Assembly: GCA_964494885.1 (NCBI GenBank)
Contig: CAZBTH010000001.1
Span: forward strand, 46,319 to 110,318
Direction of reading: 5' to 3'
From: an uncultured Gammaproteobacteria bacterium
GTDB taxonomy: Bacteria; Patescibacteriota; Microgenomatia; UBA8517
Length of the DNA stretch: 64,000 nucleotides
Made by a program: the position numbers and the translations under genes. Below, piece after piece: positions 590 through 20,979 of the stretch (positions within the stretch are counted from its first letter, which is position 1; the number at the start of each line of letters is the position of its first letter). Under the pieces are notes generated by a model. It saw only the letters and a list, made by a program, of their open reading frames with translations, was not told the origin of the DNA and ran no database searches.

Positions 590-621
590 TAGCTAAGTAT
601 ATACCAAACAAAAAACGAAAA

Positions 622-690
622 GGGCAGGTATCTGTCTATAAATCAAACAATTATTTGTGAATAATGTTTGACAGATAACCTGCCCTAATA
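622..690 (-). terminator. Long-stem hairpin plus U-run terminator ending the tRNA array (minus strand)
   Basis: Inverted repeat gggcaggtatctgtc / gacagataacctgccc around a 33-nt loop; on the minus strand it is followed by TTTTCGTTTTTT. Confidence 0.5.
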
Positions 691-803
691 ATTTCTAAGT
701 GCCACAAACACCTTGTCCTGCCGCATCTGCTTTGGCATGGCGGTATTTATGGCACCTATTTGCCGCTTACCCTCCATCCTGAGGACGTAGGTAATTGGCA
801 AGT

Positions 804-14003: not shown

Positions 14004-14023
14004 CTGTTATAATACACACTATT

Positions 14024-14297
14024 GGGGTCGTAGCTCAACTGGCTAGAGCGCTTCCCTGTCAAATGTGGCAGCTCCTAGTAGTAATATTAGGATGAAAAAC
14101 CGGGCTAATTCGGGGAAACCCCAATCGAAGTCGAAGGGTAATCCCGAGCTAAACTCTGATTAAATCGGAGAAATGTGTAGAGACTATACACCCGGCGTCC
14201 TGAGTGAAATCGAAGGATGATGAGATAGTCCAAGCTTTTTGGAAACAAAAAGATTTTCGCACGGAAGAGGTTGCGAGTCCGAATCTCGTCGATCCCG
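14024..14297 (+). tRNA. tRNA-Asp (GUC) interrupted by a group I intron (exons 14024-14059 and 14260-14297)
   Basis: Exons fold as acceptor GGGGTCG/CGATCCC plus G73, D-arm GCTC..GAGC, anticodon stem CTTCC/GGAAG, loop CTGT|CAC, T-loop TCCGAAT. The exon U before the intron and the intron-terminal G fit group I splicing. Confidence 0.75.
14060..14259 (+). ncRNA. Group I self-splicing intron (IC3-like) in the tRNA-Asp anticodon loop
   Basis: Conserved core GUGUAGAGACUAUACACC (P7 5' strand, very close to the Azoarcus/Anabaena tRNA introns) and GAGAUAGUCCAAG (P7 3' strand). P9 hairpin CUUUUUGGAAACAAAAAG. The internal guide GGCAG pairs with exon CUGU|C. Terminal G at 14259. Confidence 0.7.
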
Positions 14298-14413
14298 CCC
14301 CAAATTCCCATTGACTTCGGTTTGATCATAGTCTAAATTCAGGCTAACTTCGGTGCTACCAAAAAGGGTGGCTTGCCCCCCGAAGCTTCAGCGAAGGGGG
14401 GTGAATTTATTTG

Positions 14414-15070: not shown

Positions 15071-15141
15071 GCGGGTGTAGTTCACCGGTAGAATGCGTCC
15101 TTCCCAAGGACGAGAAGGCGGTCCGATTCCGCTCACCCGCT
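15071..15141 (+). tRNA. tRNA-Gly (CCC)
   Basis: Acceptor GCGGGTG/CACCCGC, D-arm GTTCACCGGTAGAAT, anticodon stem CGTCC/GGACG, loop ttCCCaa, T-loop TCCGATT. Confidence 0.75.
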
Positions 15142-15255
15142 CAAGTATTGGTGTGAACTGTCTCTATATTACAACATGAGAAAAACTATAAAATCCAACT
15201 TATTTCGTAGATGTCGACAGCGGTTAGTTGGCGTGCTGTATTTGAAACTTTAAGG

Positions 15256-16485
15256 CTATTTAAATTTACCCTTACTCTGGAAGGACTCAGCAAGCCTGAT
15301 TATCTCGTCTTTTGGTAAAAAGCGAGACCAATAGAAAAACGGTCTACCTTGTTCAATTTGACTTCTGCCACCACCCCAAAAACCTGAAACCTTGGCTTTA
15401 TATTCTCCTGAATACCAATAAGGCTCACCATTTATGCGGGATGTTAATTCATCCAACGCAACTTCCTTTTGCAATTTGGTTAATTCAATAGCTGGTAATA
15501 TTTCTAATAACCCTTTGAACATTGTAGGAATAAAAGTTCTGGCAATGCCGGCATTATTATATTGGTCTATCAATGCTCTGTGCAATATATTCCAAACATG
15601 TTTGACGCCATCGACTGTTTCAAATTTGTCTGTGGCACCTACCCACCAATTCATTAGCCATTGCCTAGTTTTAGGTCCCCAGTAAAATGAGTCACTTGGC
15701 AATTCCTCGGCGGTCTGGGTTACAGGCTCCACAACATTATCTCCAAAGGCACTTAGTTCGTTAGCCAAGGCTTTTTCAATGAGGTGTGTAACAAGATAAA
15801 TGGCTTGTCTATCGATTAATCCAACCAATGCAGTTGCTTCTTCAAATGTAACATCTTTTATATAATTATCGGGACTCTCCTTACCTGTGTTAAATAGAAA
15901 GGTAATTTGATCCTTAGTCAATGAAAACTCTGATAGCCGTAACCGGACCGCTTGCTTAACAACCATCTCATTTGTAGCCAAAAGAAATCCTTTTCTACTT
16001 AAGTTCTCGCGCATTTGGTGTATTTTTCCCATTTCTACCACACCTTTTTCTATCGCTTTAATTGCCTTAATGCCCAAATCATGATCATCCTGGGTTGTCA
16101 AAAGAAAAGATATCCCAACGCCATAGGCAGTTATAAAATTGTTAAGTTCTTCGATGGTGATCTCATCTCGTCCTGATTCGTTATGTGATTTTACTGCGAC
16201 ATCTAATAGCCTTTTTGAATGAGATATTAATTTCTGACCCGCTGTAAACATCAGTTTAGAATCAACATTTCGGACCGATGCAACCACCTCGGGTGTGATT
16301 TTCCCCAAAAAAACAGTTCCAGGAATTATCTCTGTTGGATTAATATTGGGCAAGTTCAAATTATGAATGAAGTCGTCTAAGCTAACGGCTTCAATAGGCG
16401 ACAATACTTGTTTGTCTGTATCTTTTGGCCTAACTTCGATTGCCATGACGCTATCATAACAAACTGGTATCAACTTTTCAACCAT
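15256..16485 (-). CDS. Hypothetical protein (409 aa), no family recognised
   Basis: Long ORF with good coding texture, in a tRNA-adjacent island. Confidence 0.5.
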   Translation of the reverse strand: MVEKLIPVCYDSVMAIEVRPKDTDKQVLSPIEAVSLDDFIHNLNLPNINPTEIIPGTVFLGKITPEVVASVRNVDSKLMFTAGQKLISHSKRLLDVAVKSHNESGRDEITIEELNNFITAYGVGISFLLTTQDDHDLGIKAIKAIEKGVVEMGKIHQMRENLSRKGFLLATNEMVVKQAVRLRLSEFSLTKDQITFLFNTGKESPDNYIKDVTFEEATALVGLIDRQAIYLVTHLIEKALANELSAFGDNVVEPVTQTAEELPSDSFYWGPKTRQWLMNWWVGATDKFETVDGVKHVWNILHRALIDQYNNAGIARTFIPTMFKGLLEILPAIELTKLQKEVALDELTSRINGEPYWYSGEYKAKVSGFWGGGRSQIEQGRPFFYWSRFLPKDEIIRLAESFQSKGKFK

Positions 16486-16510
16486 GCCTACATTCGTACT
16501 GCTTTAAATC

Positions 16511-17287
16511 TTACATTTCAGGATTAGGATGTAATTTTGTTATCCGACCCGAAAATTCAGGTATAGCTTGAGTCGAGACGACCTTAGATTCGGATAAGAC
16601 TTTTTCCAACATTGCCTGGTCGGGGTTCTCTTTAACCCCCCCCCAGACCTCATGTTCCTCATCACTATTTGAAATTTTCCTCAGTTGCATAATGTAGTTT
16701 GGTTCGATAAATTTCACCACCAGACCAATTTTCGTCCGCTCATCTAGCCAGGCACTTTCATATCTCCGGCGATTCACAAGATGTTCTAAGCCTGGGATTT
16801 TTGCGGCTGACTTTGATAACCCGGTGTGTGGTCTATAAATCCCGCCGGATAATACCTTTCTGGTGATCTCACCAGGTCCCAAAAAATCAGTATTTCCCAC
16901 CTTGCTTAAGAGGAAGAGTTGTGGCATAAAGGCGGTACTAAAACCGTTTTCAATTTGCGTCTCGATACTCACCAGTCCGTAACATGCAAAATCGCGTTCT
17001 TTGCTCACATTAACTGTAAAGTCTCCCAATTCCCCCTCAAACTTCGCTCCGTGATGCCACCAGCCCGGAAATGGGGCACCAGCCGTGCTAGCGCCGCCAG
17101 TTCGCACTCTACCATAAAGGCCATGGATAACGGCGATTTCGCTTGGACTATAACCTAGCATTACGAAGGGTGAACTAGTAAAAAATACTTCATTCAATAC
17201 TTCTCTCGCCCACGTCACTTCCAGATACAACTCTCTCATTGGGCTTACCTTTTCTTTGCTCTCCATTTGGGCAGGATTGTACACCAA
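16511..17287 (-). CDS. Hypothetical protein (258 aa), no family recognised
   Basis: Long ORF co-directional with, and 25 nt upstream of, the 409-aa gene. Confidence 0.5.
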   Translation of the reverse strand: MVYNPAQMESKEKVSPMRELYLEVTWAREVLNEVFFTSSPFVMLGYSPSEIAVIHGLYGRVRTGGASTAGAPFPGWWHHGAKFEGELGDFTVNVSKERDFACYGLVSIETQIENGFSTAFMPQLFLLSKVGNTDFLGPGEITRKVLSGGIYRPHTGLSKSAAKIPGLEHLVNRRRYESAWLDERTKIGLVVKFIEPNYIMQLRKISNSDEEHEVWGGVKENPDQAMLEKVLSESKVVSTQAIPEFSGRITKLHPNPEM

Positions 17288-17307
17288 TGCATTAATTCAT
17301 TCAACGC

Positions 17308-18255
17308 TTGGACATTTGGTGTATAATCACGATTATATGGAAAAGGCATTATCTGGAGATAAATCTAGAAACAAATTACTTTCACCAATTCCTCATATTG
17401 GCGGTCCGGGACCCCAAATTTGACCATATTTCTACCTTAGATATCGATAAAGACTCGAAAGATGCTGTGATACTTTGGGCAAACAGACAAGAGAGGGTAG
17501 AAAAAGCGTGGGCCACACTTGACAACTTAAGCAGAAATCCGGGTCTTCCCAAAGCCGAAGCCGAGGTTGCTAACGAGCTTGCAAACACTGCGCTAGATAA
17601 GTTTTCGGAGATTAATCGCGAAATAGCTAAAGCTTTAGAAGCGGATGGACTTGCAGAGTCTATTTTAAACATATATATAGGTTTTTTTGATCAAACAAAA
17701 GATGAGAAGACAATTATTGAAAGTGCTGAAAATGTCGGAAGTGCCAACAAGTTATTAGACCGGATAGACTTGGCATCCGCAATTTGCACCGCAATCGTTG
17801 AAACCAGGGCAAATAATCCCAAGCTGAGACAAATGCGTCAAAAGATAGCACAATCTGTTTTTGATGAAATGTGTAACCAATTTTCTCAGGATAGACTCCT
17901 ATTCAGACACAGAATTGAGGCGCAACCAACTGCGATTATCGATTCCCCAATTGTTGAAAAAAGCGAGCTCACCAGTGCGCTTTTATCTGAAGACTGGACA
18001 GGCAAGGAGAGAAAGAAAGCATTTGCAAGTTTTAATCAGGTGCATGACGGAATGTTAGCTCAGAGAGTCGACGGAACGCACATAAGAGACCTAAACAAGC
18101 TTTGGAGATGGGCAGACGAAGGCGTTCCGGAAGATGTATCTGTCTTTACAATCTTGGAAGTCGCCGACAGAGTTTATGGTGAAGCCGGTTCGGCTTTCCA
18201 GGATGTTTGGGAAGCACAAGGCGAGAGGGAGAGGGAAAGAAAATCCTCCAAGTGA
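17308..18255 (+). CDS. Hypothetical protein (315 aa), helical, ERERER tail
   Basis: Long ORF divergent from the 258/409-aa pair. Confidence 0.45.
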   Translation: MDIWCIITIIWKRHYLEINLETNYFHQFLILAVRDPKFDHISTLDIDKDSKDAVILWANRQERVEKAWATLDNLSRNPGLPKAEAEVANELANTALDKFSEINREIAKALEADGLAESILNIYIGFFDQTKDEKTIIESAENVGSANKLLDRIDLASAICTAIVETRANNPKLRQMRQKIAQSVFDEMCNQFSQDRLLFRHRIEAQPTAIIDSPIVEKSELTSALLSEDWTGKERKKAFASFNQVHDGMLAQRVDGTHIRDLNKLWRWADEGVPEDVSVFTILEVADRVYGEAGSAFQDVWEAQGERERERKSSK

Positions 18256-18270
18256 CGTTTAGAATCTCAA

Positions 18271-18798
18271 TCATTTACTTTTGTATAAACAATATCTTCC
18301 ACTTCCAATTATCCCCGCCCTTTCAAAGCCTGCTTTCTCCAAAACTTTTTGAGAGTTTATATTATTTGGATGGACGTTCCCAAAAAGAGATTCGTAACCC
18401 AAATTAGAAAAAGCATATTTAGATAAGGTTTTAACAGCCTTCCACATATAACCTTTCCCTACAAACTCACTGCCCAAATAATATCCAACCTCTGCTTTTG
18501 ACTCTCCGTTTTCATCAGGAATCAGATTAATACTTCCGACAAATTCTCCATGATCCCAAATGCCAAATCTTAGCTTATCGGGATTTTTTGGATTAGTAAT
18601 ACTATCAAACACCGACTTTTCATCAGGATATTTAGAGGCTGTTTCATCGCCAAATTGAGACAAATGTCCTCTATTTCTATCAATAAGTTCAAAGATAACC
18701 TTTGCATCGTCAGGGGTAAATTGTCTCAAGGTGATTCCAAATTCAGATGAGCGAATTTCCAAAGGATTAGTAGTTATTGAAAGATTCTGTTCAGACAT
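18271..18798 (-). CDS. GNAT family N-acetyltransferase (RimJ/RimL-like)
   Basis: GNAT acetyl-CoA motif region VGYYLGSEFVGKGYMWKAV. Confidence 0.7.
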   Translation of the reverse strand: MSEQNLSITTNPLEIRSSEFGITLRQFTPDDAKVIFELIDRNRGHLSQFGDETASKYPDEKSVFDSITNPKNPDKLRFGIWDHGEFVGSINLIPDENGESKAEVGYYLGSEFVGKGYMWKAVKTLSKYAFSNLGYESLFGNVHPNNINSQKVLEKAGFERAGIIGSGRYCLYKSK

Positions 18799-19028
18799 AA
18801 CATCGATATTTTAGTTCATACCCCAGAGGAAGCTATTCTATACCAGTCCTCCAAGATTCGACCACCTTTACTCGCACCAAGTATGCTTGTCCTGATAAAA
18901 TACTGCTTCATATTTATCAAGTTTTTCTAAATCTTCTTTTCTAAATCTTTCCCTAGAATTAAGAATTACAATTTTCATTTTTTAGATTATACAACTTTCA
19001 GATGAATAGAACTGCCACTAGCGCTGAA

Positions 19029-19049
19029 TATCATATATCGATATATGAT
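19029..19049. promoter_or_regulatory. Operator-like palindrome copy 1 (ATCATATATCGATATATGATA)
   Basis: Perfect 20-bp palindrome; identical core at 19536-19558 and 19999-20024. Confidence 0.7.
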
Positions 19050-19089
19050 ATTCATTGGTTAAATGACTTTAATTAAAAATTGGTGAAAT

Positions 19090-19236
19090 TTTATCATCAA
19101 AGCAGAAAACCGCTTGCGTTAGCAAGTGGATGAATGCTTTTAAGCGAGTCGTTTAACGACGAGCGACAGATTCACAGGCTTTGATGTGAATCTGAATGAG
19201 AAGAAACTACCAGTGTAAGCTGGTAGATATTCATTT
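19090..19236 (+). ncRNA. Candidate small RNA: 4 hairpins plus an intrinsic terminator, convergent with the small membrane-protein gene
   Basis: Hairpins gcttgcgttagcaagt, gtcgtttaacgac, gattcaca..tgtgaatc and ctaccagtgtaagctggtag, followed by atattcatttttt. A TATCAT-like -10 sits about 20 nt after palindrome copy 1. No ORF. Confidence 0.35.
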
Positions 19237-19488
19237 TTTAAGCCACCAGGACTTGAGGATGCCAAGAGAGAAAGTCGAAACTAAATAGGCAACCGTGGGG
19301 ATAATGGCCGAAAGAAACGGATTGGAGACTCCGATCACAACAAACAGTATTGAAACTAAAATATAAGTGAAGATTGAAATAAAAATCCTACGGGTCCAGC
19401 TTGTTTCCCAAGCCTTGTCTCCTTCTACACGCATATTTCTCGCTTTTATTTTCTCTATCTCTTTTTCCAGATTTTCAATCGTTGCCAT
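19231..19488 (-). CDS. Small 2-TM membrane protein with N-terminal coiled-coil (85 aa), hypothetical
   Basis: N-terminal MATIENLEKEIEKIKARNMR then two hydrophobic helices; bidirectional terminator hairpin at 19204-19223. Confidence 0.55.
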   Translation of the reverse strand: MATIENLEKEIEKIKARNMRVEGDKAWETSWTRRIFISIFTYILVSILFVVIGVSNPFLSAIIPTVAYLVSTFSLGILKSWWLKK

Positions 19489-19535
19489 ATGCTTATTTTA
19501 TCACGAAGATTTAGTAAACGCCCACTCTCTTTTCG

Positions 19536-19558
19536 TATCATATATCGATATATGATAG
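19536..19558. promoter_or_regulatory. Operator-like palindrome copy 2 (TATCATATATCGATATATGATAG)
   Basis: Perfect palindrome between the two minus-strand genes. Confidence 0.7.
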
Positions 19559-19560
19559 TC

Positions 19561-19992
19561 TTAACGAAGTTGACCTTTATGAAAGTCTTTCTTGAATAAA
19601 TCTGGAACCCTGCCCGAGCCGGCTTTAATGGCGTAGTCAAGAATATTAAACAAAATTTCTTTAACTGTGTTGTTTCTCCTTTGTTTTTCCAGTTTATCGA
19701 ATATGACATCGAAACCTTCCTGATGCGTCAGGATCCAAAGTTTTAATCTTGCAACAGTGGCCGGAGTTAGTTTTAAAAGGTCTTGTATCTTTATCGAATC
19801 AATATTATGTCTAAGAAGAAAGGCAGCAACCACTCTTTTGGCAATCATAAGCCTTTCGGTTTCTGACAGAACGGAGGTTAGGAACTTTTCGGTATCGGAA
19901 ATATTATTCAGATCCTTAAGGAGGAAGGTCAGCGAGTCGAGTGTATACTTTTGTATCTTGGGCTCTATTTTCCTTTTAGAAACATGCGGCAT
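19561..19992 (-). CDS. Putative HTH-type transcriptional regulator (143 aa)
   Basis: Helical protein; the segment IQDLLKLTPATVARLK resembles an HTH; flanked by three copies of one palindrome. Confidence 0.45.
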   Translation of the reverse strand: MPHVSKRKIEPKIQKYTLDSLTFLLKDLNNISDTEKFLTSVLSETERLMIAKRVVAAFLLRHNIDSIKIQDLLKLTPATVARLKLWILTHQEGFDVIFDKLEKQRRNNTVKEILFNILDYAIKAGSGRVPDLFKKDFHKGQLR

Positions 19993-19998
19993 ACCTAA

Positions 19999-20024
19999 CT
20001 ATCATATATCGATATATGATAGTC
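19999..20024. promoter_or_regulatory. Operator-like palindrome copy 3 (CTATCATATATCGATATATGATAGTC)
   Basis: Perfect 26-bp palindrome starting 7 bp upstream of the regulator start codon. Confidence 0.7.
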
Positions 20025-20979
20025 AAGACCGTGGGGTTGAGACAACACTCTTGATTTCTTCAAAACTCGTGGCCTCCATCAGTTTTTGTCTGAGTATGCT
20101 TGCCCCATTAAAATTATTGATATACATTTTGAAAAATTTCTTGATTATGGCAAAGTTTTTGGTTTCTCCCCAAGTTTTTTCAAATAGATCGATATGTTTT
20201 AACAAAAGGTCAATATAATCCTGCCTTACCCCTCGAAGCTTTAGCGAAGTGGGGTTGAATACCCAAGGGTTTGTAAAAATTCCACGCCCTATCATTACCC
20301 CATCCACTCCGTACTTTTCAGACAGAACAACAACCTCATCATAGCTTTTAACATCACCGTTTCCGATAATAACAGTCTCGGGAGAAATTTCATTTTTGAT
20401 TTTTACAATTTCACCTATTTCGTTCCAATCTGCGGGGGAAGCGGACATTTGTTTGGCGGTTCTCGCGTGAATAGTTAGTGTCGCAATATTTTGTTTTAGG
20501 AGAAACGTACACCATTCGCGCGCAATATTTTCGTTTTTACCGAGCCGAGTTTTGACACTAACGGGTATTTTTCCCGCCCCTTTTTTAACCGATTTTATAA
20601 TTTCACCCGATAAATCATAATTACCAATAAGTCCCGCTCCTGCCCCTCGTTTCATCACCTCCCGAACCGGACAGCCCATATTTATATCAATTCCGTCAAA
20701 GCCAAGGTCTGCAACAATCCCAGCCGCTTTTTCCATTAACACCGGATCTTTCCCCCAAATCTGGGCAACAATTGGATGCTGATCTGGAGTAAAAGTTAAT
20801 TTACGGAGAGGAACTCCGTGCGAATTGTACACAAGTCCATCCGCGCTCGTAAACTCAGTGAAGAAGACATCAGGCCTTCCCGCTTCCATTACAACCTGCC
20901 TAAAAACATTATCAGTAACATCGTCCATCGGGGCCAAAACCGTGAAAGGTTTGGGTAGTTTTTGCCAAAAATTATTCAT
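20023..20979 (-). CDS. dus: tRNA-dihydrouridine synthase
   Basis: VLAPMDDVTD...DINMGCP...TIHARTAKQ TIM-barrel Dus motifs. Confidence 0.85.
   Translation of the reverse strand: MNNFWQKLPKPFTVLAPMDDVTDNVFRQVVMEAGRPDVFFTEFTSADGLVYNSHGVPLRKLTFTPDQHPIVAQIWGKDPVLMEKAAGIVADLGFDGIDINMGCPVREVMKRGAGAGLIGNYDLSGEIIKSVKKGAGKIPVSVKTRLGKNENIAREWCTFLLKQNIATLTIHARTAKQMSASPADWNEIGEIVKIKNEISPETVIIGNGDVKSYDEVVVLSEKYGVDGVMIGRGIFTNPWVFNPTSLKLRGVRQDYIDLLLKHIDLFEKTWGETKNFAIIKKFFKMYINNFNGASILRQKLMEATSFEEIKSVVSTPRS

Follow-up and report, generated by a model that had tools for sequence, protein, structure and literature searches.

A 20-bp palindrome on both sides of a TrpR-family regulator gene in Patescibacteria is a putative autoregulatory operator

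We analyzed a 64,000-nt stretch (“the window”) of contig CAZBTH010000001.1 (assembly GCA_964494885.1, positions 46,319–110,318), which is deposited as an uncultured Gammaproteobacteria bacterium and placed by GTDB in the Microgenomatia (UBA8517) of the Patescibacteriota, i.e. the candidate phyla radiation (CPR). Three copies of a 20-bp palindrome, ATCATATATCGATATATGAT, lie here within about 1 kb, around the gene of a 143-aa protein of the TrpR family, the gene of an 85-aa membrane protein and a strongly structured non-coding stretch. According to the reading that we favor, with a probability of about 0.62, the palindromes are operators of the adjacent TrpR-family protein, which would repress its own gene. 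On the minus strand, which also carries all surrounding genes, the order is dus, palindrome 3, the 143-aa gene, palindrome 2, the 85-aa gene, a terminator-like hairpin, a 177-bp non-coding stretch, palindrome 1, a 36-aa open reading frame (ORF) and a GNAT acetyltransferase gene.

Palindromes on both sides of a TrpR-family regulator gene

The 20-bp core is present as an exact copy at 19030–19049 (palindrome 1), 19537–19556 (palindrome 2) and 20001–20020 (palindrome 3). A preceding sequence-only reading had described three perfect 24-bp palindromes. The sites are real, but their positions had been placed 1–3 bp off, and the 24-mer is exact only in palindrome 3 (19999–20022); there is one mismatch in palindrome 2 (19535–19558) and there are two in the corresponding segment of palindrome 1 (19028–19051), always at the outermost bases. 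In 100 shuffles the expected number of matches to the 24-mer was 0. Palindrome 1 extends to a perfect palindrome of 30 bp (19025–19054). When up to five mismatches were allowed, a search of the window returned only these three sites, and isolated half-sites were absent. A dispersed repeat resembling miniature inverted-repeat transposable elements (MITEs) or repetitive extragenic palindromes (REPs) is contradicted by the count of three copies per 64 kb, all less than 1 kb apart, and by the lack of degenerate copies; the palindrome is locus-specific in the window and not MITE-like here. Likewise, readings as dif/Xer site, integron or end of an insertion sequence are ruled out by three copies in 1 kb and the lack of a recombinase: no gene for an integrase, recombinase or transposase was found within the locus.

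Palindrome 3 is located directly upstream of the regulator gene (19561–19992, minus strand), as described before, with 6 nt rather than 7 bp separating the end of the 24-mer from the ATG; from the 20-bp core the distance is 8 nt. Its far side is abutted by a −35-like hexamer, TTGACT (20021–20026, minus strand), which contains the TGA stop codon of the upstream dus gene (20979–20023, minus strand). The −10 region falls within or just past the right arm of the palindrome and the ATG is found at about +1, implying that the mRNA is probably leaderless and that the putative operator lies over the core promoter. We infer from this geometry a classical layout for autorepression. Palindrome 2 occupies the other side of the gene, 2–4 nt past the stop codon (4 nt when counted from the core), 46 nt upstream of the ATG of the 85-aa gene and with its center ~58 bp from the latter.

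The same arrangement recurs in other genomes. The exact 20-mer was searched for in 185,579 species genomes; as only exact matches were counted, the size of the regulon derived from them is a lower bound. It was found in 38 stretches, 20 of which belong to low-GC metagenome-assembled genomes of Patescibacteria, some labelled Gammaproteobacteria, and 18 to cyanobacteria. In 11 Patescibacteria loci the 20-mer adjoins a yerC-like gene whose product is 32–95% identical to that of the window, and at least 10 of the 14 Patescibacteria genomes with an exact 20-mer possess a copy in such a position. Together with loci retrieved by metagenome and protein look-up, 15 loci were examined, encoding regulators with 32–100% identity to the window's protein. 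The upstream copy is present in all 15 of them, has 0–3 mismatches and ends 6–9 nt ahead of the start ATGCCNCA (MPH...), which is conserved. In most of these loci a −35-like TTGAC(T/A) or TTGATT is located 0–4 bp from the far side of the palindrome, its place being taken by TTAATT in two (L072 and L073). The downstream copy is found 2–20 nt past the stop codon, again in 15 of 15 loci. It is kept even if the gene that follows is oriented convergently (L006, L022) or encodes a tRNA (L037) and therefore belongs to yerC itself, not to the downstream gene. Across 43 distinct sites, positions 4–9 (ATATAT) are invariant and position 10 is a C in 93%. Since the geometry of the 15 loci fits the published 20-bp palindromic autoregulatory operators of TrpR and HisR, we read the palindromes as autorepressor operators, and the proposal of one repressor with three operators, already made in the sequence-only reading, gains comparative support from their position around the orthologous genes.

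Sister genomes (88% nucleotide identity) are homologous to the window exactly from 20029 to 19228, that is from the outer edge of palindrome 3 to the stop codon of the 85-aa gene. They keep the yerC and 85-aa genes at this identity; a protein ORF fills the slot that is taken by the structured stretch in the window, and the genes flanking the homology block differ. One sister genome contains five exact copies of the 20-mer, three of them in the syntenic locus. Its third palindrome, to which palindrome 1 is orthologous (88% across 41 nt, minus-strand flank included), has on one side a convergent ORF for a 90-aa coiled-coil protein and on the other the long leader of a DUF3800 gene; its fourth copy lies between a curated DUF3800-V RNA (64 bits) and an HsdR-like gene. 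In L062 and L072, a third copy follows 74–75 bp past the second one, in each case before an unrelated small ORF. Further sites in relatives are close to genes for a methyltransferase, a HEPN_Swt1/DUF499 protein and an RNase-H-like exonuclease, and some are found at tyrS-recG.

The surroundings of the 20-mer in other genomes were also inspected. In relatives, GC-rich repeats of the type GGAGCGAGCG are found 0–30 nt past the palindrome (L041 4284–4720 and 5676–5950; L001 6990–7215; L062 1946–1975; flanks of L034, L042 and L018), and in two cases a conserved ~200-nt leader, located ahead of DUF3800 and HsdR-like genes, comes after the palindrome. Of this post-palindrome sequence, only the first 15 nt (19014–19029) are retained in the window. 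Within one sister population, L040 differs from L041 by a 134-bp deletion (~3780–3912 of L041), by which the convergent 90-aa ORF loses its 3' end. In cyanobacteria, mostly Nostocales (L003, L007, L009, L011–L015, L019–L021, L023, L025, L027, L028, L030, L033, L038), the identical 20-mer immediately precedes a parA-parB-like operon at 16 of the 18 loci, often with an extra half-site, TCGATATATGATGC, 7–9 bp away. These copies probably represent an unrelated partition or operator site of a separate system. One viral contig carries the exact 20-mer as well (L071 905–924; IMG/VR contig of 121,816 bp).

The 143-aa protein had been recognized as a regulator resembling helix-turn-helix (HTH) proteins, and its family can be named. 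It scores 29.9 bits against the Pfam profile Trp_repressor (PF01371; gathering cut-off 27), residues 18–101 being aligned with profile positions 3–87 of 88. When a profile of its homologues was compared with the PDB, only TrpR-like entries were matched, namely 3FRW (5e-8), 3G1C (HisR of E. eligens, 8e-7) and 3KOR (4e-5). The AlphaFold2 model (pLDDT, a per-residue confidence score, 77) contains an extra C-terminal helix. The best Foldseek matches of this model were 3KOR, 3FRW and 3G1C, with template modeling (TM) scores on the target of 0.78–0.86 and root mean square deviations of 1.7–5.2 Å, followed by E. coli TrpR. Residues T76, T79 and R82 of the recognition helix are invariant. By Pfam score and predicted fold, the protein belongs to the TrpR family. 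It belongs to a distinct long subfamily, because the equivalog model for YerC/YecD (TIGR02531) yielded 14.7 bits at a cut-off of 42.2 and because of the extra C-terminal helix. This subfamily comprises 416 cluster representatives at E≤1e-10; the names attached to homologues in the source are Woesebacteria, Patescibacteria group and YerC. A canonical YerC/HisR orthologue is ruled out by the TIGR02531 score, by the different site consensus and by the finding that his genes adjoin none of the sites examined.

DNA binding by TrpR-family proteins is sequence-specific and in most cases requires a co-repressor. TrpR and HisR (YerC) bind 20-bp palindromes, and an autoregulatory site is found at the promoter of approximately half of the hisR genes (PMC9413887). 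The 143-aa protein resembles these PF01371 members in its fold, the signature of the recognition helix, the 20-bp palindromic site and the presence of such a site before its own gene. However, it is ~40 residues longer and has the extra C-terminal helix, and the putative operator is unlike cacTTTAnnnnnnTAAAgtg or TGTAcTnGTnnACnAgTACA. A second putative operator is conserved directly past the stop codon, histidine or tryptophan genes are not found nearby, and the extra sites in relatives adjoin genes of accessory or defence type (DUF3800, HsdR, methyltransferase, HEPN_Swt1). The system would thus be a variant of TrpR/HisR-type autoregulators, notable for an operator on each side of the gene and a near-invariant operator sequence over deep CPR divergence. 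C proteins of restriction-modification systems are likewise small autoregulatory HTH proteins with palindromic boxes at their own promoter and are encoded among accessory genes, but they have an Xre-type HTH and other boxes; the window contains no restriction-modification genes. A literature search on TrpR-like regulators or leaderless promoters of CPR bacteria returned nothing relevant.

The operator model and its alternatives

In the proposed mechanism, palindrome 3 fills the spacer and the −10 region of the regulator promoter, and bound protein would block RNA polymerase because the palindrome overlaps the core promoter. Palindrome 2 would most likely form a loop with palindrome 3, 464 bp away, and thereby strengthen autorepression; a further possible effect is a block to transcription leaving or entering the regulator gene. 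Palindrome 1 could act as a lineage-specific third operator, possibly within a divergent control region, between the structured RNA candidate on the plus strand and the GNAT gene on the minus strand. The 85-aa membrane protein and the structured stretch would then be cargo beside a conserved operator-regulator-operator unit. The sequence-only reading had also placed the 85-aa gene under control of the repressor. Here, direct repression is not evident because palindrome 2 does not overlap the gene's own promoter, an extended −10 box, TGATAAAAT (19495–19503, minus strand), which is located 6 nt before the ATG and is conserved in L041 and L062.

Several observations weigh against the operator model. 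The regulator is paired with its sites by co-occurrence and by family precedent, its score falls short of the YerC/YecD equivalog cut-off, and the site sequence differs from both published consensi of TrpR and HisR. Some sites of relatives are found between or inside housekeeping genes, namely at tsf-frr and in a recX-like ORF. The sequence is moreover not exclusive to the regulator, as no yerC-like gene is present within 8 kb of the cyanobacterial 20-mers. Finally, the flanks beyond the conserved core differ between sites of one genome, yet their arms are complementary: 3.42 of 6 positions can pair between the arms compared to 2.18 ± 0.19 after permutation, and none of 2000 permutations reached the observed value. 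A sequence-specific dimer would explain the invariant core, but not this covariation, which hints at selection for cruciforms or hairpins, at tandem dimers or at a palindrome-generating origin.

An alternative is that the palindromes are mainly structural or recombination elements and not operators, acting as DNA cruciforms, as RNA hairpins or as boundaries of exchangeable gene cassettes; the covariation of the flanks would fit this idea. It would also account for the onset of homology to the sister genomes precisely at the outer border of palindrome 3, with different genes beyond, for the contents of the slot that follows the 85-aa gene up to the third palindrome, which are 177 bp of RNA-like sequence here and a 90-aa ORF in the sister, and for the variation of this slot within one population, as seen in the deletion of L040. 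The 10-nt direct repeat GATATTCATT that brackets the structured stretch points in the same direction. However, the locus is devoid of integrase, recombinase and transposase genes, the fixed register of the palindrome to a −35 box and a start codon over 15 loci is what an operator predicts, and the core is invariant in sequence and not merely self-complementary. RNA hairpins in particular cannot account for the upstream copy, which is probably not transcribed. We therefore consider a mainly structural role unlikely and prefer the operator reading.

The structured stretch and the 85-aa membrane protein

No other segment of the window is as structured as the stretch between the 85-aa gene and palindrome 1, which is a candidate for an orphan small RNA (sRNA). 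On the plus strand, 19057–19240 is predicted to fold with a minimum free energy of −64 kcal/mol into a three-way junction closed by a 12-bp helix, then a hairpin of 10 bp and a terminator. For 19052–19242 values of −65 kcal/mol (z −7.5) on the plus strand and −48.8 kcal/mol (z −6.7) on the minus strand were obtained, and five G·U pairs of the plus-strand fold become A·C on the other strand. When the 3192 windows of 190 nt in the 64 kb were ranked by folding energy with a correction for GC content, the plus strand at 19041 came first, ahead of the tRNA cluster. The terminator-like hairpin (19207–19226) has T-rich tails on both strands and would be shared by converging units, of which the plus-strand unit is a candidate; the hairpin-rich stretch and the bidirectional terminator of the sequence-only reading are thus real. 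No Rfam family reached its gathering threshold in this stretch, the best match at E≤10 being RAGATH-22 with 15 bits as compared to a threshold of 120. Apart from the palindromes, BLASTN of 18979–19230 against more than 70 fetched loci and the window matched only contigs of the same population (L044–L054), with 100% identity, and exact scans for two of the hairpins in 2.9 million viral contigs gave no match.

We give the existence of a real, discrete RNA at 19057–19240 about even odds. Only slightly less credible is the converse, that 19057–19228 is no independent sRNA but either lacks a function, as an insertion or relic, or consists of stacked terminator hairpins that serve the converging genes. 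Homologues were found neither in relatives nor in the 2.9 million viral contigs nor in Rfam. As expected for an insertion, the 10-nt direct repeat occurs on both sides, at 19047–19056 after palindrome 1 and at 19226–19235 after the terminator (14 of 16 identical positions over 16 nt), and the stretch possibly originated by insertion or local duplication. A good sigma-70 promoter is lacking; candidates for the plus strand are the weak hexamers CTGAAT...GATATT around palindrome 1, placed as at palindrome 3, or TATCAT at 19091. Strong structure beside the palindrome is not general either, as it is conspicuous at only three of the 33 sites examined, namely in the window, in L006 and at DUF3800-V. 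However, an inert relic or hairpin stack fits poorly with the rank of the stretch as the most stable GC-corrected 190-nt window of 64 kb, with the asymmetry between the strands and with a proper terminator at the plus-strand end. In addition, a palindrome copy of the sister genome lies upstream of the DUF3800-V RNA, which is likewise convergent with a protein gene. RNAs associated with DUF3800 (DUF3800-I to -XI) are structured, end in a terminator and are located beside a protein gene (Weinberg et al. 2017, PMC5737381). The stretch shares the terminator and the adjacent, here convergent, protein gene with these RNAs, but it has no Rfam match and a DUF3800 gene, although sought, is absent from the window.

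By analogy to these RNAs, drawn through the palindrome copy of the sister genome, a more far-reaching reading can be formulated. The long TrpR-like regulator would form, with its hyper-conserved palindrome, a portable control cassette of CPR bacteria that gates neighboring cargo such as defence genes, small membrane proteins and structured RNAs, and the 180-nt stretch would represent a new class of orphan RNAs under this control. We regard this as an improbable extension of the operator reading.

The 85-aa protein (19231–19488, minus strand) is composed of a long N-terminal helix, conserved and hydrophilic over 30 aa, and two transmembrane helices. It belongs to a conserved CPR family with more than 400 members of uniform length (~87 aa), which are 50–80% identical and share the invariant hydrophilic N-terminal motif RN.RVE.DKAWETS.TRR. 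No match was found in Pfam, NCBIfam, PADLOC or PDB, and a Foldseek search of the modeled structure against the PDB returned nothing meaningful. As a rule, the family is encountered apart from yerC, the palindrome and such an RNA: homologues occur in five distinct contexts (L055/56, L057/58, L059/60, L061, L069/70) lacking all of these, and in L062 the gene is found upstream rather than downstream of yerC. A −10-like box is located 6–8 nt before the ATG in most of the distant homologues without palindrome (L055, L057 and L061; L059 is unclear), suggesting that the 85-aa gene has its own promoter of leaderless type.

The sequence-only reading had likened the locus to type I toxin-antitoxin (TA) modules of the par/Fst kind or to phage-exclusion modules. 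In such a scheme, the 85-aa protein would be a toxin whose mRNA is controlled by the convergent plus-strand RNA, the whole module being gated by the repressor. Type I toxins are short hydrophobic peptides, typically of less than 60 aa and with one transmembrane helix. Indeed, the layout recalls par/Fst of the Enterococcus plasmid pAD1 in that a gene for a small membrane protein would converge with a highly structured RNA candidate on a common terminator-like hairpin found on both strands, and palindromes 1 and 2 would be mutually complementary if transcribed. However, the protein is larger than Fst, has two transmembrane helices and carries an invariant hydrophilic motif over its many homologues of uniform length, and the five contexts without palindrome, yerC or similar RNA do not fit a module of this kind. 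The RNA is not inherited together with the gene: it is missing from the sister loci that retain the gene pair, where homology ends at the 85-aa stop codon (19228). Complementary repeats at the 5' end, as in par/Fst, are absent; the only repeats common to RNA candidate and mRNA are the palindromes and a 9-mer, and outside the terminator the energy of an RNA-mRNA duplex falls within the range of shuffled sequences (fractions 0.32 and 0.87). As PADLOC detected nothing either, we consider a TA module highly improbable and do not uphold this part of the earlier proposal, phage exclusion included.

Genomic neighborhood and implications

Downstream of palindrome 1, the minus strand carries an extended −10 box, TTGTATAAT (18986–18994), 7 nt before the ATG of a doubtful 36-aa ORF (18868–18978), and the GNAT acetyltransferase gene (18271–18798; Acetyltransf_3, E 2e-23). 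The module had been assigned to a tRNA-proximal accessory region. Proximity to tRNA genes holds only loosely, the nearest ones being 3.9 and 5.3 kb away, but three consecutive ORFs of 409, 258 and 315 aa without Pfam match (15256–18255), which may form a small accessory block, do lie between tRNA-Gly (15071–15142) and the GNAT gene. The base-composition profile of the window shows no clear island signature. Elsewhere in the window, a tRNA-Asp(GUC) gene (14023–14300, plus strand) carries a 200-nt group I intron in its anticodon loop (Rfam Intron_gpI, 90 bits at 14044–14252); the gene was missed by a standard tRNA scan and detected by aragorn with introns allowed. In the ranking of 190-nt windows by structure, second place is taken by a segment directly 3' of tRNA-Pro (~600–800, minus strand). 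It ends in a hairpin with a T-run, has no Rfam match at the gathering threshold and could be an unrecognized small RNA. The population represented by the window occurs in the groundwater runs SRR2177362, SRR2177950 and SRR2177986.

A −10-like box 5–9 nt before the start codon, without Shine-Dalgarno sequence, was observed at several genes (19488, 19992 and 18978 in the window; L016 731; L042 3580; L055–L061), which suggests that leaderless mRNAs are widespread in this CPR lineage.

Transcription control is scarcely understood in CPR bacteria/Patescibacteria, which cannot yet be grown alone. The present findings overturn no current understanding. The orphan structured RNA candidate offers an inexpensive target for mapping in metatranscriptomes, and a gene flanked by conserved operators, if these function as proposed, would represent an uncommon autoregulatory layout. 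The regulator family, with at least 416 cluster representatives, and a putative operator that stays near-invariant down to 32% protein identity make up a pair that is testable in vitro, and the operator sequence would allow the regulon to be mapped across metagenomes.

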